DNA of 62,367 bases, filler included, from Collodictyon triciliatum (taxonomy: Eukaryota), in the NCBI GenBank assembly GCA_043381765.1. It is 7 parts of 6 records of this genome, joined end to end, with 100 filler letters (N's around TTAATTAATTAA, not from the genome) between each part and the next. Parts side by side here need not be neighbours in the genome. Positions count along the whole stretch, not along the records: positions 39,632 to 48,011 come from JBHJMP010002789.1; 6 more parts are not named here. One strand, written 5' to 3'. Below, piece after piece: positions 31,250 through 48,011 of the stretch. Below the pieces are notes generated by a model. The model saw only the letters and a list, made by a program, of their open reading frames with translations. It ran no database searches and had not been told where the DNA came from. Every line of letters starts with the position of its first letter. Position 1 is the first letter of the stretch. The translations under genes were made by a program, and so were the position numbers.

Positions 31250-34200
31250 TCAAAGTGGCGAGTCATTTATATCTTTTGGATTTGAAATATGACACATCTC
31301 CTTATCTTCGTATGGTTTTTTTTTGAAAAACTTTGCCTTTGCATAAAAATAAAAGCAAATCTTGCCCATCAAGGCCCACATTAAAAGGACCATAGAATAA
31401 GCGTTTCTTAAAATCATTTTCACAACAACAGGACCTGCTTTTGAAAGAAATATAGCACCTATTCCACCATTTAGTGTAACGACTGATAATAGTAAGAATG
31501 TTTCAGTATTTTGATTTGGATTATTGTACCGGAATATTAAACTCATCATTAGAGTGAAGTAAAGAACCAAAAGGGATTGAATTTGCGACTTCCTTAATAC
31601 ATTTGATATAAACGGCTTGAAATAGATGGTTGAAGCTATCATCAAAAAGAGCAACCACAAACCAAAGTAAATCTGAAGCGAAGCTGAAAAAAATGTGCTT
31701 ATCATTACAATTAAAAGCTTTTGCATCATCATCAAAACTTCCCAATATTGGCATTTTTCGGTATATCCATCCACCAGAAATCTTAAAAGTTCATATGATT
31801 TTGAAGTTGGATTACACAAAGCCCTTCTCTTTTTAACAATTCTGACTAGTATAAGCAAAGGACCTCCAATACAATATGTAATCAAGAAAGAAGACGAAAT
31901 ATTTCTCCATAGTTTGTAAGTAACATCATCACAAAAAATAGACATGTCAGATTTCAAGTAATTTTCTTGTCCTAGTTTTTGACAAGGAAATATTTCGGAA
32001 ATTGTTGAAGTAATAGAAGGATGCACAAAAAATAGCATGACCAGCGATGAGTAGAAAAATTCTTTTTTGAATTGAATAAATGTCATTTCATCCACGGTAA
32101 TCAATTTCTTATACAATAGCCAACCTTTTTTCAAAATTATGAAAAATATTACCACTATCATAAGTATAATCGGAGTCATAATGGAATACAAAATCCTATC
32201 GTAAACAGTAAATTTAAATTGACATTCCATCGGTAAGCTCTCCATAGAAAATGAAAATGAAAACAAAGCAGGTATTTTCATTACTGAAACTATAACCGCA
32301 CTCCAGTTTACATCAAAATTGGCTAAGTATGATAGAACTTGGTAATGCGTGGAAAGAGACTTAAGTATTAAAATGTTCCCAGTTTTTGGCTGCCTTGATT
32401 GTTCTATCATGAAGAAGGTAAAAGCGAGTGGAATGCATATGCTCAGAAAAAATAATAGCAAATTGGCCCCTTTAGATGGACATTTTATACATATGGATCC
32501 CATCTTCCCGTAGCCTCTTTCACAAACACTACATAAAGCTCCGCTATATCCATCGGCACAGCTATTATTGCCTCCATTACATGCTTCTTGATTAAAGCAT
32601 TTAAATGCGATGTATTCTCCACTCGAACTCTGGGCCTGCCAATATCCGGGTGCGACATTAAGGTTATTGCTTCCATCGCATATGAAGCCTTCTGGACAAG
32701 GTTTGCATATCTTATCTCTAGAGTCGAAATATGTATTTGTAAAACACTTACAATCACTTACAGAAGCGGCGCCTGTTATATTAGTAAAAGAATTAAAGGG
32801 ACAGTCCTTGCACAAAGTTTGACCATAATTTTCGTTGAAAGTACCTGGGGGGCATTTGAAACATTCTTCCTGCTTTTCATACCATCCTGGTTGGCACTGA
32901 CACGTAGAGTTTATCAAATCAAAGCCAATTTTGCAAATACAATCGACCGGATTCATAGACCCATTATTACGTGTGGTAAATTTGCTGGCACACTGAAGAC
33001 AAAAATTTGTTCCATGTGTAGACTTGTAATAACCAACCTGACATGGAACACATTTGCCATCACTTTCGAATTTACCGGTTGGGCAGGTGCAAAGTCCATC
33101 AATGAAAACATATGATCGAACACATTTACAGTCAGTGATCAATTTGGACTCTTCAACTATGGTGGTTGAGCGCGTCGGACAAGTATTACAAGAGGGGCTC
33201 CTTTCTTGGCTGTAGCTCCCCTTCTCGCATGCAATACACAATGATCGACTAAATGAGCCAGTTCTGTTATTGAATGTACCAGCTGGACATGATGTGCACG
33301 ATGCTTGACCATCTCTATCATTCCAAGTGCCTTGTGGACATTCAATGCATGATATATTTCCATATGAGGCAGAGTTTGAATTGTATGTGCCTTTTGGACA
33401 AGCATAGCATGAATTTGAGTCTTTTGTGATTCCTTCTTTTTGATAGAATCCCGATGAGCATAAGCTGCATGATGCACTTCCAAAAGAGCTGTAGCTTCCG
33501 TTTGGACATGAAATGCATGATAATTGATTGAATGAGCCAGTTTTGTTGTTGAATGTACCAGATGGACACGATTTGCATGTTGCCTGACCATCTCTATCAT
33601 TCCAAGTACCTTGTGGACATTCAATGCATGACTTGTTTCCATGAGAGCCAGAGTTTGAGTTGAATCTGCCATTTGGACAAGCATAGCATGATTGTGAGTC
33701 TTTTGCGACATTTTCTTGTTGGTAGAATCCTGATAAGCATAAGCTGCATGATGAGCTTCTCTCTGAGCTGTAGCTTCCATTTAGACACGAAATGCATGAT
33801 GATTGATTGATTGAGCCAGTTTTATTGTTGAAAGTACCCGCTGGACATGATGTGCATGACGCTTGACCATCTCTATCATTCCATGTGCCTTGTGGACATT
33901 CAATGCATGACTTGTTTCCATGAGAGCCAGAGTTTGAGTTGAATCTGCCATTCGGACAAGCGTAGCATGATTTCGAGTCTTTTATTACTCCTTCCTTTTG
34001 GTAGAATCCTGATGAGCATAAGCTACATGAAGAGCTTCCAGCTGAGCTGTAGCTTCCATCTGGACATGGAATGCATGATGATTGATTGAATGAGCCAGTT
34101 TGATTGTTGAAAGTACCCGCTGGACATGATGTGCATGACGCCTGACCATCTCTATCATTCCATGTGCCTTGTGGACATTCAATGCATGATTTGTATCCAT

Positions 34201-37200
34201 ATGAGCCAGAGTTAGTGTTGAATGTGCCATTCGGACAAGCGTAGCATGATTTTGAGTCTTTTATTACTCCTTCCTTTTGGTAGAATCCTGATGAGCATGG
34301 GCTGCATGATGCACTCCCAACTGAGCTGTAGCTTCCGTTTGGACATGAAATACATGATGATTGATTGAATGAGCCCGTTTTGTTGATAAATGTACCAGCT
34401 GGACATGATGTGCATGACGCCTGACCATCTCTATCATTCCAAGTACCTTGTGGACATTCAATACACGATTTGTTTCCATATGAATCGAAGTTTGAGTTGA
34501 ATGTGCCTTTCGGGCAAGAGTAACATGATTTTGAGTCTTTTGTGATTCCTTCTTTTTGATAGAATCCAGATGAACATGAGATACACGATGCGCTTCTTTC
34601 TGAGCTGTAGCTTCCATTTGGACATGATATGCACGATGATTCATCAAATGAGCCAGTTTCATTGTTGAATGTACCAGGCGGACATGATGTGCATGATGCC
34701 TGACCATCTCTATCATTCCAAGTACCTTGTGGACATTCAATGCATGACTTGTTTCCATGTGAGCCGGAGTTTGAGTTGAATGTGCCTTTTGAACAAGCAT
34801 AGCATGATTCTGAGTCTTTTGCGATTCCTTCTTTCTGATAGAATCCTGATAAACATGATGTGCATGAAACGCTTCTCTCGGAGCTGTAGCTTCCATCTGG
34901 ACATGAAATGCAAGATAATAGATTGAATGAGCCACTTTTATTGTTAAATGTACCAGCTGGACATGATGTGCATGATGCTTGACCCTCTCTATCATTCCAA
35001 GTACCTTGTGGACATTCAATACATGATGTATTTCCATATGAGCCGGAGTTTGAGTTGAATGAGCCTTTTGGACAAGGGTAGCATGATTTTGAGTCTTTTA
35101 TTACTCCTTCCTTTTGGTAGAATCCTGATAGGCACAAGCTGCATGATGAGCTTCTTTCGGAGCTGTAGCTTCCATTTGGACATGAAATACAAGATGATTG
35201 ATTAAATGAGCCAGCCTTATCGTTGAATGTACCAGCGGGACACGATATGCATGATGCTTGACCCTCTCTATCATTCCAAGTGCCTTGTGGACATTGTATA
35301 CATGATGTGTTTCCATATGAGCCAGATTTTGAGTTGAATGTAACTTTTGGACAAGCATAACATGATTTCGAATCTTTCATTATTTCTTCTTTTTGATAGT
35401 ATCCTGATAAGCATAAGATACACGATGCGCTTCTTTCTGAACTGTAGCTTCCATTTGGACATGAAATGCATGATGACTGATTGAATGAGCCAGTTTTGTT
35501 GTTGAATGTCCCATCTCGACATGATGTGCATGATGCTTGACCATCTCTATCATTCCAAGTGCCTTGTGGACATTCGATACATGATTTGTTTCCATGTGAG
35601 CCAGAGTTTGAGTTGAATGTGCCTTTTGGGCAAGCATAGCATGATTTCGAGTCTTTTTTGACTCCCTCTTTTTGATAGTATCCTGATGAGCATAAGCTGC
35701 ATGATGAGCTTCCAGCTGAGCTGTAGCTTCCATTTGGACATGAAACACATGATGATTGATCGAACGAGCCAGTTTTGTTGTTGTATGTACCAGCTGGACA
35801 TGATGTGCATGATGCTTGACCATCTCTATCATTCCAAGTACCTTGTGGACATTCGATACATGATATGTTTCCATGTGAGCCGGAGTTTGAGTTGAATGTG
35901 CCTTTTGGGCAAGCGTAGCATGATTGCGAGTCTTTTATGATTCCTTCTTTTTGATAGTATCCTGATGAGCATAAGCTGCATGATGAGCTTCCAGCTGAGT
36001 TGTAGCTTCCATTTGGACATGAAATACAAGATGATTGATTGAATGAGCCTGTTTTATTGTTGAATGTACCAGCTGGACATGATGTGCATGAAACTTGACC
36101 ATCTCTATCATTCCAAGTACCTTGTGGACATTCAATGCATGATTTGTTTCCATGTGAGCCGGAGTTAGTGTTGAATGTGCCTTTTGGACAAGAATAGCAT
36201 GATTGCGAGTCTTTTATGATTCCTTCTTTTTGATAGAATCCTGATGAGCATAAACTGCATGATGTGCTTCTTTCCGAGCTATAGCTTCCATTTTGACATG
36301 AAATGCATGATGATACACCAAATGAACCAGTTTTATTGTTGAATGTACCAGCTGGACATGATGTGCATGATGCTTGACCCTCTCTATCATTCCAAGTACC
36401 TTGTGGACATTTAATACACGATTTATTCTCATATGAGCCAGAGTTTGAGTTGAATGTGCCTTTTGGACAAGAATAGCATGATTGCGAGTCTTTTATAATT
36501 TCTTCCTTTTGATAGAATCCTGATAAACACAAACTGCATGATGAGCTTCTCTCTGAGCTGTAGCTTCCATTCGGACATGAAATACACGATGATTGATTTG
36601 ATAAGCCAGTTTTATTGTTGAATGTACCAGCGGGACATGATGTGCATGATGCTTGACCCTCTCTATCATTCCAAGTACCTTGTGGACATTTAATACACGA
36701 TGAGTTTCCATATGAGCCAGAGTACGAGTTGAATGTACCTTTTGGACAAGAATGGCATGATTTGGAGTCCTTTTTAATTCCTTCTTTTTGATAGAATCCT
36801 GATGAGCACAAGCTGCATGACGAGCTTCTTTCTGAACTATAGCTCCCATTTGGACATGTGATGCATGATGATACATCAAATGAGCCAGTTTTATTGTTGA
36901 ATGTTCCGGATGTGCATGGAATACAATCATTTCTATCAAAATTAACGTATGTTCCGAATGGACACTCAATACAAGATGATTCATCGCTACCTCCGAAATT
37001 GGGATTATATTTTCCAAGACTACATTTTTTGCATATAGTCTGTCCTATTTGGTCAGCATACGTTCCTGATGTGCAAAAAGAGCATACGATCGAAGCTGTT
37101 TCGGAGGAAAAGCTTCCTATTGGACATGGCTTACAGTCTAAAGCACTCTTAGAGGCTGGAGTGGAGTTAAAAGTACCTGAAGGGCACTTTTGGCATATAT

Positions 37201-38776
37201 TCGACTCTGTATAGTTCGAGAATGTTCCGGGCAAGCAAGGAGAACAGAAAGCTTTACCAGTTTCATTATTGAAAAATCCACGGTCGCAAGCGATACAAAA
37301 TTCTTGTCCGATGGAGGGATTATAGGTTCCAACTTTGCATGAGGTACAATTGTCGATATTTGGTGAACCTATGTTTGGATTGAAAGTCCCAACAGGACAT
37401 GAAATGCATAAAGGCTGACCAGGTAAGGGATTATATGTACCCGATTTACAAGGAATACATGAACTATTACTGGATGCACCTATTAACGGACCGTAAGAAC
37501 CAGGAGGACATCTTATGCATGAATTTATACTAATTGATCCTACTTCTGAGTTATATGTGCCAGTAGGACATGAGGCACATAAAGATTGACCACTTTTTGG
37601 ATTGAAAGTACCAGGTGCACATAAAAGGCAAGAACTTATACTAGTCGACCCTAAAGATGGATTATAGCTTCCAGGAGGACACAACGTACAGTTTAAACTT
37701 CCGATTGCTGCATAACTTCCTATTGAGCACTTAACACAGGCTTTTGATTCAGAGTCATAATAAAAGCCTCCAGAACATATACCCCATATTTTGATTAACC
37801 TATCATAACTACCGGAGACAATTTTTGAGTTATCAGGAGTAATAACGACGCTCCAAACACTGCCACCATGGCCATCATAGGAACGAATCAGGCTTCCATC
37901 ATACATATTCCAAAGTTTTATCGAAAAATCATCACTCCCAGATACAATTTTTGACCCATCAAGAGATATACTCACGAACTGAACCCCATACGTATGACCG
38001 TTTAAAGTTAGAATCAATTGACCATCTAAGATGTTCCAAATTTTAATTGTTGTATCCATGCTGGCAGAAATAATTTTTGAACCATCAGGAGAGACAACAA
38101 CACCTAAAACCCAGTGAGTATGACCATTTAAAGTGAGAATCAGTTTCCCATCAGAAAGCTTCCAAATTTTGATGGTCTTGTCATCACTCGCAGAAATAAT
38201 TTTTGAACCGTCCGGAGAAACAAAAACCTCATTAACATCACTCATATGTCCCATCAAAGTGCGAATCAGATTTCCATCTAAAATATTCCAAACTTTGATA
38301 GTGTTGTCCCAGCTTCCAGATACAATTTTAGATCCATCTGGTGTACTTGTAACACTGAATACAAGGTCTTTGTGGTCATTAAAGGTTCGAATAAGTATAC
38401 CATCATTAGCATTCCATAGTCTTATGCGATTATCATTACTACCAGATATAATTTTTGAGCCATCGGGAGTTAAAGCAACAGTTTCAACCATAGTGCCACG
38501 TACAGTCATAGTGTTAATTAATGCACCAGTTGAAAAATTCCAAACCCTAACCTCCTCATAATTCCCAGAAACAATTTTTGATCCATCTGGGGTAACTTTT
38601 ACACTAGAAACTGCGCTAGCACGCACTACTAATGTATTTATTGAGTAATCTTGTCCTTGTGTCCTGTGTAATAGACAGCAAAGGATTACACCTATACATA
38701 TGATCGTCAATAATTGCTCATCAAAATTAGAATAAATATTTTTACCTAGTAAATAGACACATTTCAGTGAATCCAT
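31250..38776 (-). CDS. 2508-aa intronless surface receptor-like protein: signal peptide, 7 WD40 repeats, long GCC2/GCC3 (ephrin-receptor-like) Cys-rich array, C-terminal multipass membrane domain
   Basis: Hydrophobic LLTIICIGVILCCLL then TQG/QD; repeats of SPDGSKIVSGSxDxTIKIW; CxxCPxGTF repeats; CADGYSGALCSVC..GY juxtamembrane motif; about 8-9 hydrophobic segments at the C-terminus. Confidence 0.9.
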   Translation of the reverse strand: MDSLKCVYLLGKNIYSNFDEQLLTIICIGVILCCLLHRTQGQDYSINTLVVRASAVSSVKVTPDGSKIVSGNYEEVRVWNFSTGALINTMTVRGTMVETVALTPDGSKIISGSNDNRIRLWNANDGILIRTFNDHKDLVFSVTSTPDGSKIVSGSWDNTIKVWNILDGNLIRTLMGHMSDVNEVFVSPDGSKIISASDDKTIKIWKLSDGKLILTLNGHTHWVLGVVVSPDGSKIISASMDTTIKIWNILDGQLILTLNGHTYGVQFVSISLDGSKIVSGSDDFSIKLWNMYDGSLIRSYDGHGGSVWSVVITPDNSKIVSGSYDRLIKIWGICSGGFYYDSESKACVKCSIGSYAAIGSLNCTLCPPGSYNPSLGSTSISSCLLCAPGTFNPKSGQSLCASCPTGTYNSEVGSISINSCIRCPPGSYGPLIGASSNSSCIPCKSGTYNPLPGQPLCISCPVGTFNPNIGSPNIDNCTSCKVGTYNPSIGQEFCIACDRGFFNNETGKAFCSPCLPGTFSNYTESNICQKCPSGTFNSTPASKSALDCKPCPIGSFSSETASIVCSFCTSGTYADQIGQTICKKCSLGKYNPNFGGSDESSCIECPFGTYVNFDRNDCIPCTSGTFNNKTGSFDVSSCITCPNGSYSSERSSSCSLCSSGFYQKEGIKKDSKSCHSCPKGTFNSYSGSYGNSSCIKCPQGTWNDREGQASCTSCPAGTFNNKTGLSNQSSCISCPNGSYSSERSSSCSLCLSGFYQKEEIIKDSQSCYSCPKGTFNSNSGSYENKSCIKCPQGTWNDREGQASCTSCPAGTFNNKTGSFGVSSCISCQNGSYSSERSTSCSLCSSGFYQKEGIIKDSQSCYSCPKGTFNTNSGSHGNKSCIECPQGTWNDRDGQVSCTSCPAGTFNNKTGSFNQSSCISCPNGSYNSAGSSSCSLCSSGYYQKEGIIKDSQSCYACPKGTFNSNSGSHGNISCIECPQGTWNDRDGQASCTSCPAGTYNNKTGSFDQSSCVSCPNGSYSSAGSSSCSLCSSGYYQKEGVKKDSKSCYACPKGTFNSNSGSHGNKSCIECPQGTWNDRDGQASCTSCRDGTFNNKTGSFNQSSCISCPNGSYSSERSASCILCLSGYYQKEEIMKDSKSCYACPKVTFNSKSGSYGNTSCIQCPQGTWNDREGQASCISCPAGTFNDKAGSFNQSSCISCPNGSYSSERSSSCSLCLSGFYQKEGVIKDSKSCYPCPKGSFNSNSGSYGNTSCIECPQGTWNDREGQASCTSCPAGTFNNKSGSFNLLSCISCPDGSYSSERSVSCTSCLSGFYQKEGIAKDSESCYACSKGTFNSNSGSHGNKSCIECPQGTWNDRDGQASCTSCPPGTFNNETGSFDESSCISCPNGSYSSERSASCISCSSGFYQKEGITKDSKSCYSCPKGTFNSNFDSYGNKSCIECPQGTWNDRDGQASCTSCPAGTFINKTGSFNQSSCISCPNGSYSSVGSASCSPCSSGFYQKEGVIKDSKSCYACPNGTFNTNSGSYGYKSCIECPQGTWNDRDGQASCTSCPAGTFNNQTGSFNQSSCIPCPDGSYSSAGSSSCSLCSSGFYQKEGVIKDSKSCYACPNGRFNSNSGSHGNKSCIECPQGTWNDRDGQASCTSCPAGTFNNKTGSINQSSCISCLNGSYSSERSSSCSLCLSGFYQQENVAKDSQSCYACPNGRFNSNSGSHGNKSCIECPQGTWNDRDGQATCKSCPSGTFNNKTGSFNQLSCISCPNGSYSSFGSASCSLCSSGFYQKEGITKDSNSCYACPKGTYNSNSASYGNISCIECPQGTWNDRDGQASCTSCPAGTFNNRTGSFSRSLCIACEKGSYSQERSPSCNTCPTRSTTIVEESKLITDCKCVRSYVFIDGLCTCPTGKFESDGKCVPCQVGYYKSTHGTNFCLQCASKFTTRNNGSMNPVDCICKIGFDLINSTCQCQPGWYEKQEECFKCPPGTFNENYGQTLCKDCPFNSFTNITGAASVSDCKCFTNTYFDSRDKICKPCPEGFICDGSNNLNVAPGYWQAQSSSGEYIAFKCFNQEACNGGNNSCADGYSGALCSVCERGYGKMGSICIKCPSKGANLLLFFLSICIPLAFTFFMIEQSRQPKTGNILILKSLSTHYQVLSYLANFDVNWSAVIVSVMKIPALFSFSFSMESLPMECQFKFTVYDRILYSIMTPIILMIVVIFFIILKKGWLLYKKLITVDEMTFIQFKKEFFYSSLVMLFFVHPSITSTISEIFPCQKLGQENYLKSDMSIFCDDVTYKLWRNISSSFLITYCIGGPLLILVRIVKKRRALCNPTSKSYELLRFLVDGYTEKCQYWEVLMMMQKLLIVMISTFFSASLQIYFGLWLLFLMIASTIYFKPFISNVLRKSQIQSLLVLYFTLMMSLIFRYNNPNQNTETFLLLSVVTLNGGIGAIFLSKAGPVVVKMILRNAYSMVLLMWALMGKICFYFYAKAKFFKKKPYEDKEMCHISNPKDINDSPL
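33200..36930 (-). repeat. Coding tandem repeat, 13 units of 279 bp (93 aa)
   Basis: CPQGTWNDR(D/E)GQ occurs 13 times; nucleotide landmarks recur every 279 bp (e.g. near 35173, 35452, 35731, 36010). Confidence 0.9.
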
Positions 38777-39631: not shown

Positions 39632-41152
39632 TCTTCATTAAATTTTTTTGTGGGGACGCCTGGAACTACTGCTGGTGATACTTTGGGTCGTTTTTTAGCA
39701 GAACGATTGACTGTTGCGAGCACTGTCACCACAGTCCGAAATACTTTGAATTGTATTGGAATGAATGGAACTGGTGGGTCAGCAACTGATCCGGCGATTA
39801 TTTTTGGGGACAATACAAATTTACCGGCTGCGAGTCGTAGCGGTATTTATGGTTCAGCAGATAATTCAGTGGCAATAAGTACAAACGGAGTTCAAAGATT
39901 TACGGTAAACGATAATGGCGTAAATTCTGAATCTCGTTTTATAGCCTCTAGAGGTGTCGCAATTAGTAACGGATACAGTTTCAACGGCACGGACATTTCA
40001 GGGCTATATGCGAGTAGTACTGACAGAACAATGCATTTAATTAGTAATTCTGTCCCTGTTTTGAGTGTGTTAAACACGGGTGGAACTGGAGGCACTGGTG
40101 GGACTAGCACAGTGACAGTCAACGGAACTATTAATACGACTGGGTTAAGAACTCCTATTACGTCTCGAAGTCATACTAGTATTCTTATAGGTGCAACAAG
40201 TCCTATGATGATACGAGTGTTGATATCTGACAATGTACCAAATACATTTGATTTACCTAATTTAGGAGCAACATTAACTGGCCAAACTCACGTTATTATT
40301 CCCTATAAAGATGCAGCCAGTACAGGCACGTTAAATATGTGGACTGGTGGCGGAACGGGACACGCAATTCACGTTATGCATAATTCAACAAAAACTGTTG
40401 TTACAGGTAGCAGCATATATCCATTAATAGAGGGTGGGGTATACACTTGTGTGTGGCATCATTTAACTACAACTGCAGGCCAACTTCAAGGAATCTGGTA
40501 TGTATGGATTGATGGGGTGGCAACGACAACTGTGTCCGAACCGTTCGTAGTTAATACAAATATAGATTTTAGTGTATCAAATAGTGGTGCTAGAATACAA
40601 GGGGTAAACTCAGGAGCAGCCTCTAGTGTGGGTATGGTTCTTAATGGGAACTTAGCTACTAGATTTACCCAAGACGATACCGAAATTCAAAACTCTCTAC
40701 GATTGTTTAAGGTGCCATTATCTGATTTTCTCGTTGTAGACTTTGAAACGTATAATGTAGACCGAAACAGTCCTAAAACACTTATTTTAACCAAACAACC
40801 ATCAGGAAGTTTGACTACTAATATAATTTTCCCTGATCCTACTGCTGTACCTACTGGTCTAGAAATCGAAGTAATTGTGTGGAATCTGCCAAGTAAAAAC
40901 GGCACGGGATATAAACGAATCAGATTCACCACTACGAGCGCGTTTGTAATAGGCGCATCAAATCAAAATATGATGGCAGTACATAGTACAAATTACGAGG
41001 TAGCGGAAGGAACTTGGTTTAAGGCAATTAATATGAGAACATCAAACAATACTGTTCCACAAAATATAAATCGCTGGTTTTTGCGTGCTAGACAATGGGT
41101 CGTTCCTGTTGGAGGTACGGCTTTAACCATAGTAGCAAATGCCGACACATAA
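39632..41152 (+). CDS. Fibre/spike-like virion protein, 5'-partial
   Basis: Frame is open from the contig edge. G/T/S/N-rich; shaft-like repeats (IIFGDNT..SGIYGSADNSVAISTNGVQRFTVNDNG; YSFNGTDISGLYASSTDRTMHLISNSVPVLSV) and two related beta-rich domains (FDLPNLGATLTGQTHVII..GIWYV; IIFPDPTAVPTGLEIEVI..RWFL). Confidence 0.65.
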   Translation, partial: SSLNFFVGTPGTTAGDTLGRFLAERLTVASTVTTVRNTLNCIGMNGTGGSATDPAIIFGDNTNLPAASRSGIYGSADNSVAISTNGVQRFTVNDNGVNSESRFIASRGVAISNGYSFNGTDISGLYASSTDRTMHLISNSVPVLSVLNTGGTGGTGGTSTVTVNGTINTTGLRTPITSRSHTSILIGATSPMMIRVLISDNVPNTFDLPNLGATLTGQTHVIIPYKDAASTGTLNMWTGGGTGHAIHVMHNSTKTVVTGSSIYPLIEGGVYTCVWHHLTTTAGQLQGIWYVWIDGVATTTVSEPFVVNTNIDFSVSNSGARIQGVNSGAASSVGMVLNGNLATRFTQDDTEIQNSLRLFKVPLSDFLVVDFETYNVDRNSPKTLILTKQPSGSLTTNIIFPDPTAVPTGLEIEVIVWNLPSKNGTGYKRIRFTTTSAFVIGASNQNMMAVHSTNYEVAEGTWFKAINMRTSNNTVPQNINRWFLRARQWVVPVGGTALTIVANADT

Positions 41153-41182
41153 ACAATTTTTATGAATAATAAGAATTGTTTA
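41150..41182. terminator. AT-rich 14-bp stem / 5-nt loop hairpin filling the gap between two convergent viral genes
   Basis: TAAACAATTTTTAT-GAATA-ATAAGAATTGTTTA: 13 Watson-Crick pairs plus one T:G. The two stop codons form the base of the stem. Confidence 0.75.
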
Positions 41183-44100
41183 ATAAATAGCCTGTGAAAG
41201 ATTCTTAATAGGTGTTCCAAAGACACGCTCTGTGACAGGCCCGTAAGATTTGCGGCCAAATGCACCGGAGCTGACAAAGAACTGGGCGTCTCTGGCCGAG
41301 CCGAATGCGCGCTTCTGGCCCCCGCCGTGGACGACGTAATTGAGCCCCTCTCGTCGGATGGTGTAATTTGATTGGCCCGGAATAATGATGGTACCGAGGT
41401 CAGAGTTGACGACCCTGCCCAGGTTTTGCTGGGGGAGAAAAGCGACGTTTCTCAGTTTCTGGTCAGTCGTGTCTCCGTATTTCGGCTTGTACTTGAGAGG
41501 CCATGACCCTTCTTTACGGTATGTTTTTATTGCCCTGCTTAAATTTGGTATATCGCCAGCAAAAAACATGCCCAGTATATCAATAAGTGCACTAGTGTCA
41601 GAAGTTAAATCGACATATTCAATGCCCATTTTTCTTAGAACTTCATCAAAACTTTCTTGAGAATTTATACCATATTCATTAGCTCCTGCTGGATTAGCTC
41701 CTTCAATCCATCTTGATATTTTTCTAGCAAAGCGTGACTGATTGCCATATTCACGGCTGTCCGACACTTGAGGGCGCATAGTGTTAAATATTGCCATTTG
41801 ACTACCGCGTCCACCTCCACCGCCAGGAGGGCCGCCACCAGGGGGGCCGCCAAATACAGGAGGAGGACCTCCGCCAGGACCAAACATTGGAACTGCCCCT
41901 ATAATAGGACTAGCAGTAGCTGCTTGCATTGATTGTCTTCTATTTGCTGCCATATTATTACCGGGAAAAATATTTCTTTGTACCGCATCGTTTGCAGCTT
42001 GGAAAATGCCAGCGCCGGCGCCAGCTGCAGCTTGAACTATGCCAGCACCAGCATTAAAAACAGCCCCAGCAAGTGCTCGTGCTGTAGCCAATCTTCCAGT
42101 AACAATCGGAGACAAAGGTGGCAATCCCCTCGCTGGACTTTGAAAAGGAATTATTTGTTGAGCTGCAGGACTGGCTTGAGCTGGCCCTATTGCTAAGGAA
42201 GTTGGAGGACGAGGAGTTGTGGGAGGCCGGCGGCCACGAGGAGCAGGAGGAGGGCTAAATGGCGCAAGTTGTTGAATATTAGGATTTTGTTGTCCGGGCG
42301 CGGGTAGTGGCAAAAATTGGTCCGCTGGCAACCAAGGCCCAGCTGCAATAATATGGGGACTAGGTGCATTAAATCTAGGGTTTGGAGAACGTCGTGCCAA
42401 AAGTGTTGTTTCCTGTTGAGCAAGTGGTGGGGTTGCTTGTCTAATAACTAATTGTCCTCCAGGAGACTGGCCAGGTGTTGAGCCACTAGCTGCTGATGAA
42501 AAACTACTGTCTGGAATTTTAGGAAACGCAACTTCATAGTAAAATCCAGCTGTATCTGCAATTTGGTCCCGTTGATTTTTTAATTCATTCGCCAAGTTTC
42601 TTAAACCCTCTATTGTTTCAGCTTGTTCAATCTCCATAGGATTTTGTAAGTTTAATAAATCATTTAAGTCTCTTATTTGTTCTTGTAATTCCTCTAATTC
42701 AAAACCACTAGTACTGGGTGCCTCTTGCAATGCAAGTAATGTTTGAACCTGATTTTCTAAATCAGCAATTCTGTTTAATTTAATTTGTGACATTAGTGCA
42801 TATCTATCATTATATTGTTTTGTAAATAATTTTTCAAGCGATGACAGTCGTGCTGTGGAATTCTCTTTTGATCCAGGAACAGGCCTTCTTTTTATTTCAG
42901 GTGTTGCTGTTTTATTAACTGAAGATTCAACTGATATATTTGTTGTATTAAATTCTGGTTTAGGTAATATAGCAAGAACCATACGTTGTTCCTTTATACG
43001 GTTCTGTTCTGCCTGAAGATTTATTTGAGCTTTAGCTTCTTGTAATTGTTTTAGATACAGTTCTTTGTCTTGCATTAAACCATTAGCCAAATTAGAAGCA
43101 GTGTTAATAGTCTGTTGAAGTTCGTCTATGTATTTGTTTTGCTCAGACAAAGCAGCATTCAAAATATCTATTTGTTGTAATCCGGCATCTACTTTTTTTT
43201 GAAGAAAATCTGCATGTGTGGCCAATTTTAATTGATCAGTACGCGTATTCTCACCACCAGTTTTTAACATTACAGCATTTATATAAGCTCTTGTAGTTAC
43301 TGTTGTATTAGCATTTTGTGCTTTGTCTATTTCATTTTGTTCTTGTATTTGTTGCATTCTAGTGCTCATATTGGCTAATTTTTCCGTAATATTACTTAAA
43401 CTAGGACTGCTGCTTACATCTGGCACTTTTGATCTGTTTGGTGTATCTTGAAAAGATATTGCTCTTTTTGCACTAGAGGATGATTTGTCTCCTATAACTG
43501 ATGTACCAAATTTACTTTGTGATTGAGTATATGATGGGGATTGGGCTACACTTGATGCTTGACCAAAACTCAGATTTGCAATATCTGTTATACCAGACAT
43601 ATCCGATACATTCATTCCTTCGGCTACAATAGTCGATTCATCAGACATATTGTCAGTTGGTGCCATTGTTAGTGATATTCCTGATTGATTAAGCTGCTCT
43701 AAGCTTTGATCTAAAATAGAACGTGCAGGAGTCATAAGTTGCGACCCAAGCATGCTCATAGTCAGAGTTGTCTGGTCAGGGTCAAATTGTGTTCTATTAA
43801 CAACAGATGCCTCACCCAGAACTTGGGACCCAAACAAAGAGCGCATTGCAGTTGCCGCATTCCCGGCATAATTTGCACTGTTAAATACTTGAGATCGTTC
43901 AAATGAAGTAAGAATGACTTGCATTGAACGCGATAATGACGCACGTGAAATTGCAGCACTCGATTGTACCATAGAAACAAGTGATTGTGCTAACATTCGA
44001 CTGATTTCTAAATTATCAAACTGGTTTAACATTACATCAAGTGAATCATTTAATATTTGATTAATATCTGTTTCTTGCCTTTCTATCAAAAATTTATATT

Positions 44101-45874
44101 CCTCATTAAGAATATCTGCTACAGTTAAGGCTCGTAATTCAGATTGAACAACTGTTGATCTTGCTTGTTGTAGTTCAAAAATTCGCTGTCTAAACTTATT
44201 AATATCTTCAATTACCTGTTTTTTTATTGGGTCCATTTGGTTGTAAAATGCTTGATATCCAGCATCGGTTTGTTCTGGTGCATTTTCAATAATAAACTGT
44301 CTAATTTCCAATTGCATATTTTTGGCCATTTGAGCAGCAGCTTCCAGTAATACTCCTTGGTTTGTAGCCTGAACGATTTGATTGATAAACTGTTGTCCCT
44401 CTTGCTCACTAACTACACCAAAAGTTACGTCTAATTGGTTTGGTGGAACAAACATTGCTGTTGTCGCATCGTCGATTTTGGCTGCAGTTTTTTCATCCAC
44501 TGTTTGATCTGTAAGATCTTCTGGAAGTCTACCAATATACTTTCTATGATATTCTTGTAGAATTTCTTTGTGTAGTTGAAGGCGTTTGGGTAATTGGGAT
44601 CTTTGGTAGTCTTGTATAAACTTTTGTTCTGCCAGTCTTTTTTTTTCAATTGCCTCTTGTCTTTTAATTTCTTTTTCTTCTGCAATTCGTTTAAATTCTG
44701 CTTCTCTCTTGGCATTAAATGCTTCAAGTCTTTCCCTACGTTTTTCGTCTTCAGCCTGTTTTTCTTTTTCTTTTTCTAACTCAGCTATAAACCGATAGTA
44801 CGCACAGTTCCAACATATATCATCAAAAGCTTCATTTTCATTTTCACCTTTAAAATCTTGGTTGTTTCGTAATTCGTATATATAATTTACAGTCTCTTGT
44901 TCAAACTCATTGTCTAATAATATTAAAAATTCAAATACTTTAGGATCATCATCGCCGCTAGGGACATCTTTAACATAATTAAAGTTTCTATGTTTCCGCC
45001 ATTCTTTCAAACAAAGATTTAACGCAGTGTAAATTTTAGTTGCTACAGGTTGTCCACGGTTATTGACCTTTTGCAAATATGGAGCATCTAAATACGACCT
45101 TCTATTGCCAATTTCTTGTTTGACTCTATTAGATATTAATTCCCATCTTTTGAATCCTTCTTCAGATGTCATGTCTTTTTTGAACTGACGGAAATATTCT
45201 TCTAATCTACCAAATGTAGTGTCTAGGTCTAATTCTTCTTCTGATTCTTCTTCTTCTTCTTCTTCTTCTTCTTCTTCTTCTTCTTCTTCTTCTTCTTCTT
45301 GTACTGGTGCTTCTTCTATTGCTCCTTCTTCATCTTCATCTTTTTCATCTTCATCATCAATTACAAAAAGAGGGGTTGCCTTAGTTGGCACAGCTGAAGC
45401 TTTTGAGCCTCCAGGCTTACCTAAACTTTCGGGTGGCTCGTCTAAGGGGTCAGTTGACTTAACAAATTTAAATGTAGGACCATACATCTCTCGCATCAAA
45501 TCTTCTACTGATGAAGACTTTGATGACTCAGCAGGCTCTGATTTCTTAGGTTCTTTCACAGGTTCTTTCCTAGTTTCAAAAACTCCATACTTAAATTTTG
45601 GATTTGGATGATTTTTAATAATTTCAGGTGCAGTTGGAAAAAATTCTTTATATTTTTCCCACGCATATTTGAACCTTTCTATATAACCAACTTTTTCATT
45701 TATTACAGTCTTTGTTCTTGTAGGTAAATCGTAATTAATCATAGCTTGTAAATAATCTATAAGGTCACTTCTTGTCATTCCTGTTCTATTAACATCGTCT
45801 GCAGTTGCCAATTCAGGACTCGCATTTTCCATATAATATATAAATTCTTGTCGAGTAAATTGCCGAAAGCTCAT
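41180..45874 (-). CDS. Large orphan viral protein (~1564 aa; acidic tract, coiled coils, Ser/Gln-rich and Pro/Gly-rich segments)
   Basis: Uninterrupted ORF. The ATG at 45874 (MSFRQFTRQEF) avoids overlap with the divergent gene. No polymerase, Walker A, integrase or protease motif recognised. Confidence 0.85.
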   Translation of the reverse strand: MSFRQFTRQEFIYYMENASPELATADDVNRTGMTRSDLIDYLQAMINYDLPTRTKTVINEKVGYIERFKYAWEKYKEFFPTAPEIIKNHPNPKFKYGVFETRKEPVKEPKKSEPAESSKSSSVEDLMREMYGPTFKFVKSTDPLDEPPESLGKPGGSKASAVPTKATPLFVIDDEDEKDEDEEGAIEEAPVQEEEEEEEEEEEEEEEEEESEEELDLDTTFGRLEEYFRQFKKDMTSEEGFKRWELISNRVKQEIGNRRSYLDAPYLQKVNNRGQPVATKIYTALNLCLKEWRKHRNFNYVKDVPSGDDDPKVFEFLILLDNEFEQETVNYIYELRNNQDFKGENENEAFDDICWNCAYYRFIAELEKEKEKQAEDEKRRERLEAFNAKREAEFKRIAEEKEIKRQEAIEKKRLAEQKFIQDYQRSQLPKRLQLHKEILQEYHRKYIGRLPEDLTDQTVDEKTAAKIDDATTAMFVPPNQLDVTFGVVSEQEGQQFINQIVQATNQGVLLEAAAQMAKNMQLEIRQFIIENAPEQTDAGYQAFYNQMDPIKKQVIEDINKFRQRIFELQQARSTVVQSELRALTVADILNEEYKFLIERQETDINQILNDSLDVMLNQFDNLEISRMLAQSLVSMVQSSAAISRASLSRSMQVILTSFERSQVFNSANYAGNAATAMRSLFGSQVLGEASVVNRTQFDPDQTTLTMSMLGSQLMTPARSILDQSLEQLNQSGISLTMAPTDNMSDESTIVAEGMNVSDMSGITDIANLSFGQASSVAQSPSYTQSQSKFGTSVIGDKSSSSAKRAISFQDTPNRSKVPDVSSSPSLSNITEKLANMSTRMQQIQEQNEIDKAQNANTTVTTRAYINAVMLKTGGENTRTDQLKLATHADFLQKKVDAGLQQIDILNAALSEQNKYIDELQQTINTASNLANGLMQDKELYLKQLQEAKAQINLQAEQNRIKEQRMVLAILPKPEFNTTNISVESSVNKTATPEIKRRPVPGSKENSTARLSSLEKLFTKQYNDRYALMSQIKLNRIADLENQVQTLLALQEAPSTSGFELEELQEQIRDLNDLLNLQNPMEIEQAETIEGLRNLANELKNQRDQIADTAGFYYEVAFPKIPDSSFSSAASGSTPGQSPGGQLVIRQATPPLAQQETTLLARRSPNPRFNAPSPHIIAAGPWLPADQFLPLPAPGQQNPNIQQLAPFSPPPAPRGRRPPTTPRPPTSLAIGPAQASPAAQQIIPFQSPARGLPPLSPIVTGRLATARALAGAVFNAGAGIVQAAAGAGAGIFQAANDAVQRNIFPGNNMAANRRQSMQAATASPIIGAVPMFGPGGGPPPVFGGPPGGGPPGGGGGRGSQMAIFNTMRPQVSDSREYGNQSRFARKISRWIEGANPAGANEYGINSQESFDEVLRKMGIEYVDLTSDTSALIDILGMFFAGDIPNLSRAIKTYRKEGSWPLKYKPKYGDTTDQKLRNVAFLPQQNLGRVVNSDLGTIIIPGQSNYTIRREGLNYVVHGGGQKRAFGSARDAQFFVSSGAFGRKSYGPVTERVFGTPIKNLSQAIY

Positions 45875-45907
45875 ATTATAACCTATATAAAATTTCTTGG
45901 CTAAGGT
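45875..45907. promoter_or_regulatory. 33-bp divergent promoter region of the viral element
   Basis: Lies between two back-to-back ATGs. Contains TATATAAAA and TTTCTTGGCTAAGGT directly before ATG 45908, matching TTTCTTTGTTAATGT before the capsid ATG at 12/15 positions. Confidence 0.55.
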
Positions 45908-46267
45908 ATGATTGTTGATGTTAGAAAAGCAAGCAGAGGTGTTGGTCGCTTTCTTACCCGGCACACGGACAACGCACTAAACAAACTGCAACGATTAGAC
46001 AAAGCCTACTCGGATTTGAATCGGGCAAGCGGTGGGCTGGTCGAGTTGGGGCTGCAGGGAACAGGAATCAAACCTGCATTCCAGACAATTGCCAACCCGC
46101 TGGTGAGCACAATCACCGCCGCGAATTTCCTGGGGAAAGGCCTGACAACCCTGGGAAATACCGACTGGAAACTTAAAAACGCGTCGGCCATCGGCTCAGG
46201 AATTCAGGACCTCGGCCAGGCCTACGTGCTCGCCTCGACAGGGCGCGGATTTCGTCCAATGACATAA
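45908..46267 (+). CDS. Small basic amphipathic protein (119 aa) upstream of the capsid gene; candidate core/membrane-active virion protein
   Basis: Tight spacing on both sides, shared upstream motif with the MCP, five GxG motifs (GVG, GTG, GKG, GSG, GRG). Confidence 0.7.
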   Translation: MIVDVRKASRGVGRFLTRHTDNALNKLQRLDKAYSDLNRASGGLVELGLQGTGIKPAFQTIANPLVSTITAANFLGKGLTTLGNTDWKLKNASAIGSGIQDLGQAYVLASTGRGFRPMT

Positions 46268-46288
46268 TTTTTTTTTCTTTGTTAATGT

Positions 46289-47959
46289 ATGGCTGAATTT
46301 CCCTCTGAAGCAAAATACATGCGCGTCAAGAACTACAACGACAAAGTGCTTGCGCGACACACTACCCGAATTAGTCCTTTTAACGGTTCAATCTTTGGGC
46401 CAACTTCAATTGACCGAATACTTTTTAACATACCTTCCGAAACTGGAATGGAGATTGACATGGATACGCTTATGCTACATTTTTCGGCGCGAATTCAAGT
46501 TTCTACTCCTGTGGCTGGTGTTTTTGATGCAGCTTTTTGTAATAGCATTGAGTCTGTAATCGGAAATCTCCGCATTAGGAAAGGGTCATCTTTTCTCTTG
46601 GAAGACATACAAAGATACAACTACCTTGAGTCTATGTTTATGAACTACTTGTCAAGAGATTACAATGATTGTGTAGGCCAAGCTGTGTTGGGTATAGGTC
46701 CTTATCACACAAGAGTGCAACGAATAACATCAGCCGCAGCTCCAGAAGGATTTACAAATTATCGAAAGTATTGTGTTCCGTTTAGATTGTCTGGTATTTC
46801 AAACTACTCGGGTCTCATATCAACTTCACTAATCGATACAGTTTCGGCTTTTCAGATTGAGATTGAATTGGCGCCTGCTTTCGACGCGTGTCAAATTAAT
46901 AATTCAACTAATGGGGCTCCTGCTACCACAGCTACATACGAAATTAGTACATGTTATCTTACATATGATGTTGTTCGTATGGCTCCAGAATATCATCAGC
47001 AATTACAGTCAAGTATTCAACGAGGAATTCCCCTGCAAATTCCGTACAAGACATGGAGAACCAGTATGTACAGCTTACCATCTGGGGCACAAACGCTGCA
47101 TGTTTTTAATATCAACGATACAGTTAAATCACTGAATGCTGTGTATGTTGCGTTTTTCAAGCAGCGAGAGCAAGGCAAATTTATGGTTCCTGGCAAAGAT
47201 AGAAAGCACAAACCCCCAACACTTGTTGACGCCCAACTTCAACTCGGCTCATTCTATTACCCCTTGCAGCCGATGGACTGTGAAGGAGCTGCACCCCAAG
47301 CATTCCTGGAGCTGCAAAAGGCGCTGGGTCTTACTCACGTGAGAAGTGAATACAATGGGCCGTTCGGGTTTGATGGTCAACAATTTATTGGAAACAATTT
47401 AAATAGTAGACAAAATTTGGAGACTGGAATTAGGGTTACTGTACCTGCACAAACTCCTGGTGCAGCTGGTGGTGCTGCTGCTCCAGCGGTAACTGTTCTT
47501 GGTCCACCTCTTGCTTATAATGATAATGGTGTTGCACTAAATGCTCAAATCGTACAGGGAGCAAAAACAGAAGTTGCTGCTGGTGGTGCTGCTAATGCTG
47601 CAGTTAGTGGGGGTGTATTTACAGATGCAGCTCATACGACTTTACTATTATCAGGTGCTTCTCAAAATGCAACTTTTACGATGACTTCCAATGGTATTTA
47701 TAGTTTTTATGGAGGCGTTTGCCAGGGCCCAGCTAGTGAATTTATGATTGGCTTCAATCTCCGCAAAGTCCTCGATGCGGTCGAAGGGGAGATCGTGGGA
47801 ACAGACATTCAGTCATCCGGTAGCGGCTTGATGTCATTAAGATTAAACTTCAATGCTGCTATTGGTGACACTGACGGGCCGTACAATATCATTGTTGCAT
47901 CGCTATATGACGCTGTCCTCGAAATTCAATCCAACCAGCAGACTTTCCGCGTAGAATAA
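46289..47959 (+). CDS. Major capsid protein, double jelly-roll, PLV type
   Basis: ISPFNGSIFGP..RILFNIP..IDMDTLMLHF; SIESVIGNLRI..LLEDIQRYNYL; YCVPF; IEIELA; YEISTCYLTYDVV; IPYKTW; KSLNAVYVAF; QLQLGSFYYPLQP; AFLELQKALG; FMIGFNL..GTDI; YDAVLEI. Order and spacing follow the PLV MCP pattern as I recognise it. Confidence 0.85.
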   Translation: MAEFPSEAKYMRVKNYNDKVLARHTTRISPFNGSIFGPTSIDRILFNIPSETGMEIDMDTLMLHFSARIQVSTPVAGVFDAAFCNSIESVIGNLRIRKGSSFLLEDIQRYNYLESMFMNYLSRDYNDCVGQAVLGIGPYHTRVQRITSAAAPEGFTNYRKYCVPFRLSGISNYSGLISTSLIDTVSAFQIEIELAPAFDACQINNSTNGAPATTATYEISTCYLTYDVVRMAPEYHQQLQSSIQRGIPLQIPYKTWRTSMYSLPSGAQTLHVFNINDTVKSLNAVYVAFFKQREQGKFMVPGKDRKHKPPTLVDAQLQLGSFYYPLQPMDCEGAAPQAFLELQKALGLTHVRSEYNGPFGFDGQQFIGNNLNSRQNLETGIRVTVPAQTPGAAGGAAAPAVTVLGPPLAYNDNGVALNAQIVQGAKTEVAAGGAANAAVSGGVFTDAAHTTLLLSGASQNATFTMTSNGIYSFYGGVCQGPASEFMIGFNLRKVLDAVEGEIVGTDIQSSGSGLMSLRLNFNAAIGDTDGPYNIIVASLYDAVLEIQSNQQTFRVE

Positions 47960-47975
47960 AATATTTATATAAGTA

Positions 47976-48011
47976 ATGGAACCGATTACAATAATCTCAT
48001 TACTTATGACT
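47976..48011 (+). CDS. Start of next viral gene (MEPITIISLLMT...), cut by contig end
   Basis: ATG 16 bp after the MCP stop, preceded by TTTATATAAGTA; frame open to the spacer; hydrophobic start. Confidence 0.5.

Follow-up and report, generated by a model that had tools for sequence, protein, structure and literature searches.

Does a short palindrome between two convergent viral genes in the genome of Collodictyon triciliatum end the mRNAs of both genes and, if so, which machinery reads it? We analyzed a window of 62,367 nucleotides, consisting of contigs chained by artificial N-TTAATTAATTAA-N linkers. The viral piece, bounded by such linkers, occupies window positions 39632–48011 (8.4 kb; G000:C2789:1-8380). 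An AT-rich hairpin at 41150–41182, assigned to neither strand, extends in it from stop to stop and is common to the two convergent genes; it was considered as a candidate two-way mRNA 3'-end signal.

The viral piece and its element family

The piece opens with a fibre-like gene (39632–41152, + strand), the 5' end of which is cut by the contig edge; the first ATG in the piece lies at 39761, and the TAA stop occupies 41150–41152. The label "fibre-like" was inferred from the position of the gene behind a penton-like gene and from mosaic C-termini in other copies; there was no family match. Opposite to it, a gene on the − strand (41180–45874, TAA stop at 41182–41180) encodes a 1564-aa protein of unassigned function with a conserved C-terminus and a variable N-terminal part. 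They are followed by a conserved 119-aa gene (45908–46267, +), present in 31 of the contigs compared, the gene of a 556-aa double jelly-roll major capsid protein of Polinton-like virus (PLV) type (46289–47959, +), and the start of a conserved hydrophobic gene of about 52 aa (47976–48011, +), which is cut by the contig edge. The capsid gene ends here without a hairpin, with AATAAA over its stop codon (47955–47960, +). An inverted repeat behind this stop (from about 47969) was rejected as a terminator; it lies inside the 52-aa reading frame. Neither Pfam nor PHROGs gave a match for the fibre, the large ORF, the 119-aa protein, or the capsid.

The structural model of the capsid was a double jelly-roll (pLDDT 77) matching capsids of this fold with E values of 1e-13 to 1e-18, among them those of iridovirus, chlorovirus, Sputnik, and mavirus at 7–12% identity. 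No virophage-type capsid was matched in Pfam at E ≤ 1, and identity to the Sputnik and mavirus capsids in the fold searches was 7–11%, so the original prediction of a PLV rather than a virophage capsid was borne out. Searches of the 75-Mb genome, the genes of which bear introns, yielded 99 matches to the capsid, 35 to the end of the large ORF, and 27 to the fibre end; these are matches and not copy numbers. Sister copies encode an rve integrase, a DUF5906 SF3 helicase, an A32 ATPase (Pox_A32, 2e-8), and a DUF5901 penton-like gene (7.7e-5); DUF5901 was also present on 13–14% of the members among atlas look-alikes. In Polintons/Mavericks, a protein-primed DNA polymerase B stands beside the rve integrase, whereas no pPolB was found in the gene maps of the compared contigs and the SF3 helicase occupies this slot. 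The distance between matching tips was 15.5 kb on the gapped scaffold C1334, and relatives were found on contigs of 16.9–17.2 kb.

The family thus combines a double jelly-roll capsid, a predicted penton, and an A32-type ATPase with a size of about 15–20 kb, terminal inverted repeats, and a variable replication/integration module, as in PLVs. As for virophages (Maveriviricetes), the capsid of their type was missing, and a cysteine maturation protease was absent from the 48 proteins scanned, except for an Ulp1-type gene on C1157, which belongs to another element. Several copies pass ungapped into unrelated flanking DNA at a terminal palindrome of 42–44 nt, and on C26 a catalase-like host gene (identified by eye) shares an ungapped stretch with the element. 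An N gap separates the window copy from the host genes to which it is linked, and no target-site duplication was readable at the one scaffold with both tips. The viral piece is a fragment from a family of endogenous Polinton-like viruses, and the genome contains dozens of relatives.

Elsewhere in the window, an intronless host-type ORF of 2508 aa (31250–38776, −) encodes WD40-like repeats and a multi-pass membrane C-terminus; it contains 13 tandem cysteine-rich units of 93 aa (279-nt period). The stretch at 20460–24600 has a G+C content of 55–58%, compared to 35–40% elsewhere in the window, and encodes a proline/alanine-rich protein with acidic DDDLF-type repeats.

Folding and conservation of the hairpin

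The 33 nucleotides at 41150–41182 comprise the entire intergenic gap and both stop codons. The + strand formed a stem of 14 pairs, one of them U.G, closed by a 5-nt loop at −10.8 kcal/mol (z = −8.0), and none of 200 dinucleotide shuffles folded as well. The − strand has a C.A mismatch in place of the wobble, which leaves 9 + 4 pairs at −5.6 kcal/mol (z = −5.6); with flanks, z was −1.7 and 13 of 200 shuffles were as good. The 14-bp AT-rich stem with one T:G, the 5-nt loop, and the inclusion of both stops, all proposed originally, were therefore confirmed by folding and ORF ends. The further claim that the hairpin is usable from either strand held insofar as both strands fold, but the two are unequal because of the U.G that turns into C.A, the − strand being the weaker.

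The hairpin threshold of Byrne 2009 is said to be about 13 or more pairs, a loop of up to 5 nt, and at most one mismatch. This value of about 13 pairs is reached on the + strand with 14 pairs and a 5-nt loop and on the − strand with 13 pairs and one mismatch; the palindrome stands at a gene 3' end, as in the hairpin rule, and begins at the stop codon on both strands. When the stops were kept and the 27-nt gap was shuffled, at least 13 pairs arose in 11 of 5000 cases, and no other stem of at least 13 pairs exists in the 8.4-kb viral piece. The hairpin is real and not a product of chance: the concern that AT-rich DNA might form it accidentally is disfavoured by these shuffles and by its retention in relatives.

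From genome matches to the end of the large ORF, 30 loci were collected, 24 of which included that end. A hairpin ending on the large-ORF stop was present at 19 of the 24, i.e., in the window copy and in 18 of 23 others; among the remaining loci, two had a hairpin at the fibre stop with extra DNA between, one had a partial stem, and two (L036 and L038) had lost it. Its position was unchanged behind at least five different fibre C-termini. In close copies, the outer nine pairs were nearly invariant, pair 10 was U.G, a mismatch, or U-A (mostly mismatched), and the other changes were one-sided G.U wobbles on the fibre strand (variant pairs 8, 10, and 14). The search for compensatory changes in relatives gave a mixed result: no both-sided compensation occurred among the close genomic copies, while in a lake-metagenome contig (L131, capsid 51% identical) a stem of 14 pairs lies between the same two stops, and at least four of its first nine pairs differ on both sides. 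The latter may reflect stepwise compensation or replacement.

Searches of IMG/VR with capsid queries and an alignment found no relatives. The arm sequence was rejected as a general motif: a pattern scan of IMG/VR gave 121 stretches, and of 80 loci analyzed, 18 passed the filter, 4 of these with the match near a stop. The scan does detect hairpin-rich genomes, such as those at IMG/VR loci L170 (hairpins at 8 of 13 ORFs) and L200 (5 of 10). T5NT is a poxvirus-like signal; it occurs in the + arm of the window, but was dismissed, as copies carrying C or A at position 10 lack it.

The fibre genes themselves are mosaic (window 39761–41152, L031–L085), having one N-terminus and at least five C-termini, all of which end at the same hairpin. 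In L045 and L047, a few bases of another fibre end remain between stop and hairpin. Such leftovers and the mosaic C-termini suggest that the fibre genes undergo module exchange.

Gene ends and promoters across the family

Distinct 70-nt windows at junctions with gaps of up to 70 nt, taken from 94 contigs or loci (669 kb), were scanned for stems of at least 13 pairs (G.U allowed, one mismatch, loop of 3–9). Of the convergent windows, 33 of 56 had stems, compared to 6 of 103 for tandem and 3 of 50 for divergent junctions (32, 5, and 1, respectively, in a stricter scan) at an AT content of 0.70–0.72 in each class; these counts overstate independence because the copies are related. Host windows, for which some loci overlap, had stems in 11 of 3089 cases: 4 of 768 at 65–75% AT and 6 of 301 above, that is, 10 of 1069 at AT ≥ 65%. 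When each junction type was counted once, stems were found at 5 of 9 convergent types versus 2 of 26 others (loop 3–5, Fisher p = 0.006) or, with loops of 3–9, 5 of 9 versus 3 of 26 (p = 0.015); two of the five stem-bearing convergent types may be distantly homologous. Convergent junctions are enriched in hairpins relative to tandem, divergent, and host controls, and the hairpin rule does not apply throughout the family.

Including terminal palindromes, 106 of 128 stems lay in the 13% of bases that are non-coding. The fibre end, the helicase end, the capsid ends of two divergent groups, and the stretch following the 52-aa gene have hairpins of unrelated sequence, which settled at the family level the earlier worry that only one hairpin was visible. 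When arms were half-swapped between junction types, 130 of 3448 combinations still paired, compared to 30 of 37 unswapped; therefore, a structure is kept and not a common linear motif. In 26 hand-picked hairpins, the length was 31–40 nt (median 34), and 17 non-Watson–Crick positions fall 5–6 pairs from the loop. The two divergent groups (C962, C786, C1809, C4052, C4810 and C2074, C3916, C4366, all G000), with capsids about 26% and 39% identical, differ in gene order; stop-to-stop hairpins were present at convergent capsid or fibre ends in both.

Hairpins lie mainly at the ends of gene runs and are rare after most tandem genes. On the sense strand, stems were frequent for the fibre (19/23), the helicase (13/24), the large ORF (where just 9 of 20 copies reach 13 pairs, which speaks against a strict rule), and the 52-aa gene (7/23, against an expectation of 0.5; a convergent junction accounts for 2 of the 7). 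They were rare for the capsid (4/27), the 119-aa gene (1/26), the ATPase (1/25), the penton-like gene (0/18), the integrase (1/17), and its partner (3/17); among internal tandem genes, the values were 0/18, 0/16, 1/25, and 1/26. The latter genes could share a downstream end, yet the integrase junction has no stem, nor does the capsid run of the closest relatives: in the copies closest to the window, no hairpin follows the 52-aa gene closing this run. A convergent pair of small genes (98 and 143 aa) had a stem at 0 of 15 ends (0/8 and 0/7). The original expectation of hairpins at other genes and in relatives accordingly stood for the homologous junction, kept in 18 of 23 other copies, and for some other gene ends, and failed at many.

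Regarding promoters, an AT-run followed by TCT near −13 was found in 120 of 292 distinct upstream regions, compared to 4.7 in shuffles (maximum 11), with TCT exactly at −13 in 104 of the 120. This late-promoter-like motif mostly precedes structural genes; two examples are in the window, upstream of the 119-aa gene (45889–45897, +) and of the capsid gene (46270–46278, +), and a variant with TAT at −13 precedes the 1564-aa gene (45885–45893, −). None of 20 host starts had the AT-run with TCT (17 usable of 20 loci plus 3 long window ORFs, mostly GC-rich). The motif AAAATTGA occurred 13 times versus 1.2 expected and only before non-structural genes: there were none in 179 structural/late regions, and all 13 were in the other 113. 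According to the available portions of PMC5294985 and PMC13196603, AAAATTGA is the early motif in Mimiviridae, the late motif of Mimivirus is bipartite and AT-rich, and that of CroV is TCTA in AT-rich flanks. As AAAATTGA is common in pacmanvirus too (PMC11788076, in part), it does not single out Mimiviridae. A further motif, YGCGT at −55 to −25, was present in 57 of 292 regions versus 7, part of this count falling inside upstream coding sequence; its resemblance to TGCG, given as the late motif of Bodo saltans virus in the accessible text of PMC5871332, is a lead only. The giant-virus-like promoter motifs suggest, independently, the same direction as the hairpins.

In G000:C26:32030-32063, C5176:2014-2046, and C2053 near 3270, the AAAATTGA motif upstream of the 143-aa gene sits within the arm of the hairpin following the 52-aa gene or directly beside it; therefore, terminator and next promoter overlap there.

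Possible readers of the signal

The fold, its pinning to the stops, its conserved place, and hairpins of the same size and unrelated sequence closing other gene runs all support a 3'-end signal. We consider it somewhat more probable than the alternatives taken together (about 55%) that the 33-mer serves as a two-way mRNA 3'-end signal, belongs to the Mimivirus hairpin-rule type, and is read by a helper giant virus. In Mimivirus, as described in the available text of PMC4402537, the signal is a structural one; nicking of the 3' hairpin falls to a tandem RNase III protein and tailing to a viral poly(A) polymerase. By analogy, both convergent mRNAs would form the stem just past their own stops, a double-strand-specific RNase III-like enzyme would nick it, and a poly(A) polymerase would tail the cut end, as Mimivirus R343/R341 do (PMC4402537, in part). 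Tandem genes upstream that have no hairpin would be read through to a common end or would use AATAAA. The element has no RNase III or poly(A) polymerase genes and possesses giant-virus-like early and late promoters, so the signal would most likely be read by the transcription machinery of a hairpin-rule giant virus (Mimiviridae-like) infecting the same cell, which would imply a virophage-like lifestyle with a non-virophage capsid. The recurrent mismatch 5–6 pairs from the loop may set the cut site.

A different reader is possible though rather unlikely: host machinery in the nucleus could use the hairpin as a 3'-end or termination signal of an autonomous element, either through Pol II with AATAAA-type processing or through a host RNase III serving as a fail-safe against convergent read-through. 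AATAAA lay over the stop at 78 of 336 gene ends (roughly below 10% expected by our own estimate), concentrated in the capsid, helicase, penton-like, and 174-aa genes, which fits host-type processing; a host actin gene likewise has this hexamer past its stop, the elements are integrated in host DNA, and three RNase III-domain matches on two contigs suggest host genes of this kind. NCLDV capsid and VLTF3 were not found in the G000 assembly, which would also favour host reading, but weakly, since the controls were silent. By gene, however, AATAAA overlay 19 of 28 capsid and 15 of 24 helicase stops but 0 of 23 fibre and 0 of 21 large-ORF stops. Nor do host genes show the hairpin or the upstream motif in a small, GC-rich sample: at 12 host stops checked by eye, mostly of GC-rich genes, no stop-anchored AT-rich stem was seen. 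The placement of AAAATTGA before non-structural genes and the TCT at fixed spacing also match giant-virus promoters, as far as the accessible text of PMC5294985 and of the Gezel-14T preprint goes.

It is also conceivable, with low probability, that the palindrome is a functionless by-product of head-to-head stops in compact AT-rich DNA and template-switch mutation, or of chance. TAA...TTA and head-to-head AATAAA do give 3–7 free pairs at convergent junctions, and at the helicase junction the latter accounts for part of the outer stem but not for the varying inner stems; 4 of 9 convergent types have no stems, and some copies (L036, L038) have lost theirs. Against these points stand the shuffles with fixed stops, the half-swap control, the near-background values of tandem, divergent, and host controls with matching AT content, the hairpins that follow a non-convergent gene, and the narrow length range, and this explanation is largely disfavoured. 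About as little can be said for a role of the palindrome as DNA, whether as a site for an element-encoded protein or as a cruciform blocking converging polymerases or bounding fibre-module exchange, which we regard as improbable as well. Its outer arms are nearly invariant among genomic copies while at least five fibre C-termini abut them, and DNA palindromes are used at the element tips. However, hairpins of the same size at other junctions are unrelated in sequence, the distant relative retained shape and not sequence, and the variant pairs 8, 10, and 14 are often G.U wobbles on the fibre strand, holding only in RNA.

Helper-read hairpins, the reading we prefer, would have close parallels. 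Sputnik and transpovirons bear the same signals (PMC6723459, PMC7031253, both in part), and hairpin use was reported for Marseilleviridae, pithovirus, iridoviruses, and Bodo saltans virus (available text of PMC5413956, PMC11814242, and PMC5871332); in hairpin-rule viruses, the signal is highly prevalent at gene ends (PMC6163669). As in the Mimivirus/Megavirus signal described in part of PMC4402537, the palindromes of the present family are AT-rich, stand directly past stops, are not conserved in sequence between genes, and are enriched outside coding DNA. Unlike there, they belong to an integrated PLV of 15–17 kb lacking RNase III and poly(A) polymerase and mainly close gene runs. The family resembles virophages in being a small dsDNA element with a giant-virus-like late promoter, 3' hairpins, packaging ATPase, and SF3 helicase, but has no virophage-family capsid match, no maturation protease seen, an rve integrase, and dozens of endogenous copies.

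Gezel-14T (PgVV-14T), a PLV of virophage lifestyle, shares the PLV capsid module and AAAATTGA before non-structural genes (accessible part of bioRxiv 10.1101/2022.07.28.501842). It differs in having a tyrosine recombinase and TVpol, and in that text only an early promoter is given and hairpins are not mentioned (10.1101/2022.07.28.501842). Its helper dependence was demonstrated by experiment, whereas here it is inferred from cis-signals. Endogenous protist PLVs (PMC10120064) and those of Halocafeteria seosinensis (10.64898/2026.07.28.741278), as far as the available text of both extends, likewise have many diverged integrated copies, rve with a non-pPolB helicase, and tip palindromes; 3'-end hairpins are not described in that text. 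A full-text literature search, viewed as titles and starts of abstracts and covering few subscription papers, returned no report of 3'-end hairpins in PLVs. Within this literature, the hairpin signal, helper-dependent PLVs, and tip palindromes are known, and no description of the signal in this kind of family was found.

According to the accessible part of 10.64898/2026.07.28.741278, it is unknown how expression works in most Polinton-like viruses, and Gezel-14T was tied to its helper by the promoter (10.1101/2022.07.28.501842, in part). If the preferred reading is true, a Mimivirus-type 3'-end signal would be a second, independent sequence marker of PLV helper dependence, and candidate helpers would be narrowed to hairpin-rule viruses. 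Somewhat more tentatively, and with slightly more doubt than confidence, we propose that this integrated family bears the full cis-grammar of a hairpin-rule giant virus (early AAAATTGA, late AT-run with TCT at −13, 3' hairpins of 33–35 nt) and would form a reservoir of elements with non-virophage capsids that depend on a helper and may be protective; such signals could serve to predict, from sequence alone, PLV helper dependence and helper group. The antiviral defence raised originally would be a further step beyond this. The 33-nt hairpin RNA suits the published in vitro assay directly, and the recurrent stem geometry could bear on what sets the cleavage position, an open point in the available text of PMC4402537.

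The element tips have palindromes of 42–44 nt, which form a class of their own and were kept out of the 3'-signal counts. They were located at G000:C2416:969-1015, C3401:4612-4658, C5471:3328-3372, C2008:10653-10695, C1334:18853-18902, C6381:2279-2320, C846:35774-35821, and C4089:9951-10000. Their centres are asymmetric and occur in both orientations, with five flip/flop pairs among 18 tips and three arm types, as would be expected for covalently closed hairpin ends opened before integration; the available text of 10.64898/2026.07.28.741278, which describes such tip palindromes, does not contain the word "flip". At G000:C8561:123-164 and C9664:372-417, palindromes like those of the tips break up the large ORF and the capsid gene, which suggests that one element is nested inside another. 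Beside fragments of the present family, G000:C1157:5000-22106 holds another element, possibly a virophage-like virus, the genes of which include one for a SET plus Ulp1-type protease, an ATPase, and a helicase.
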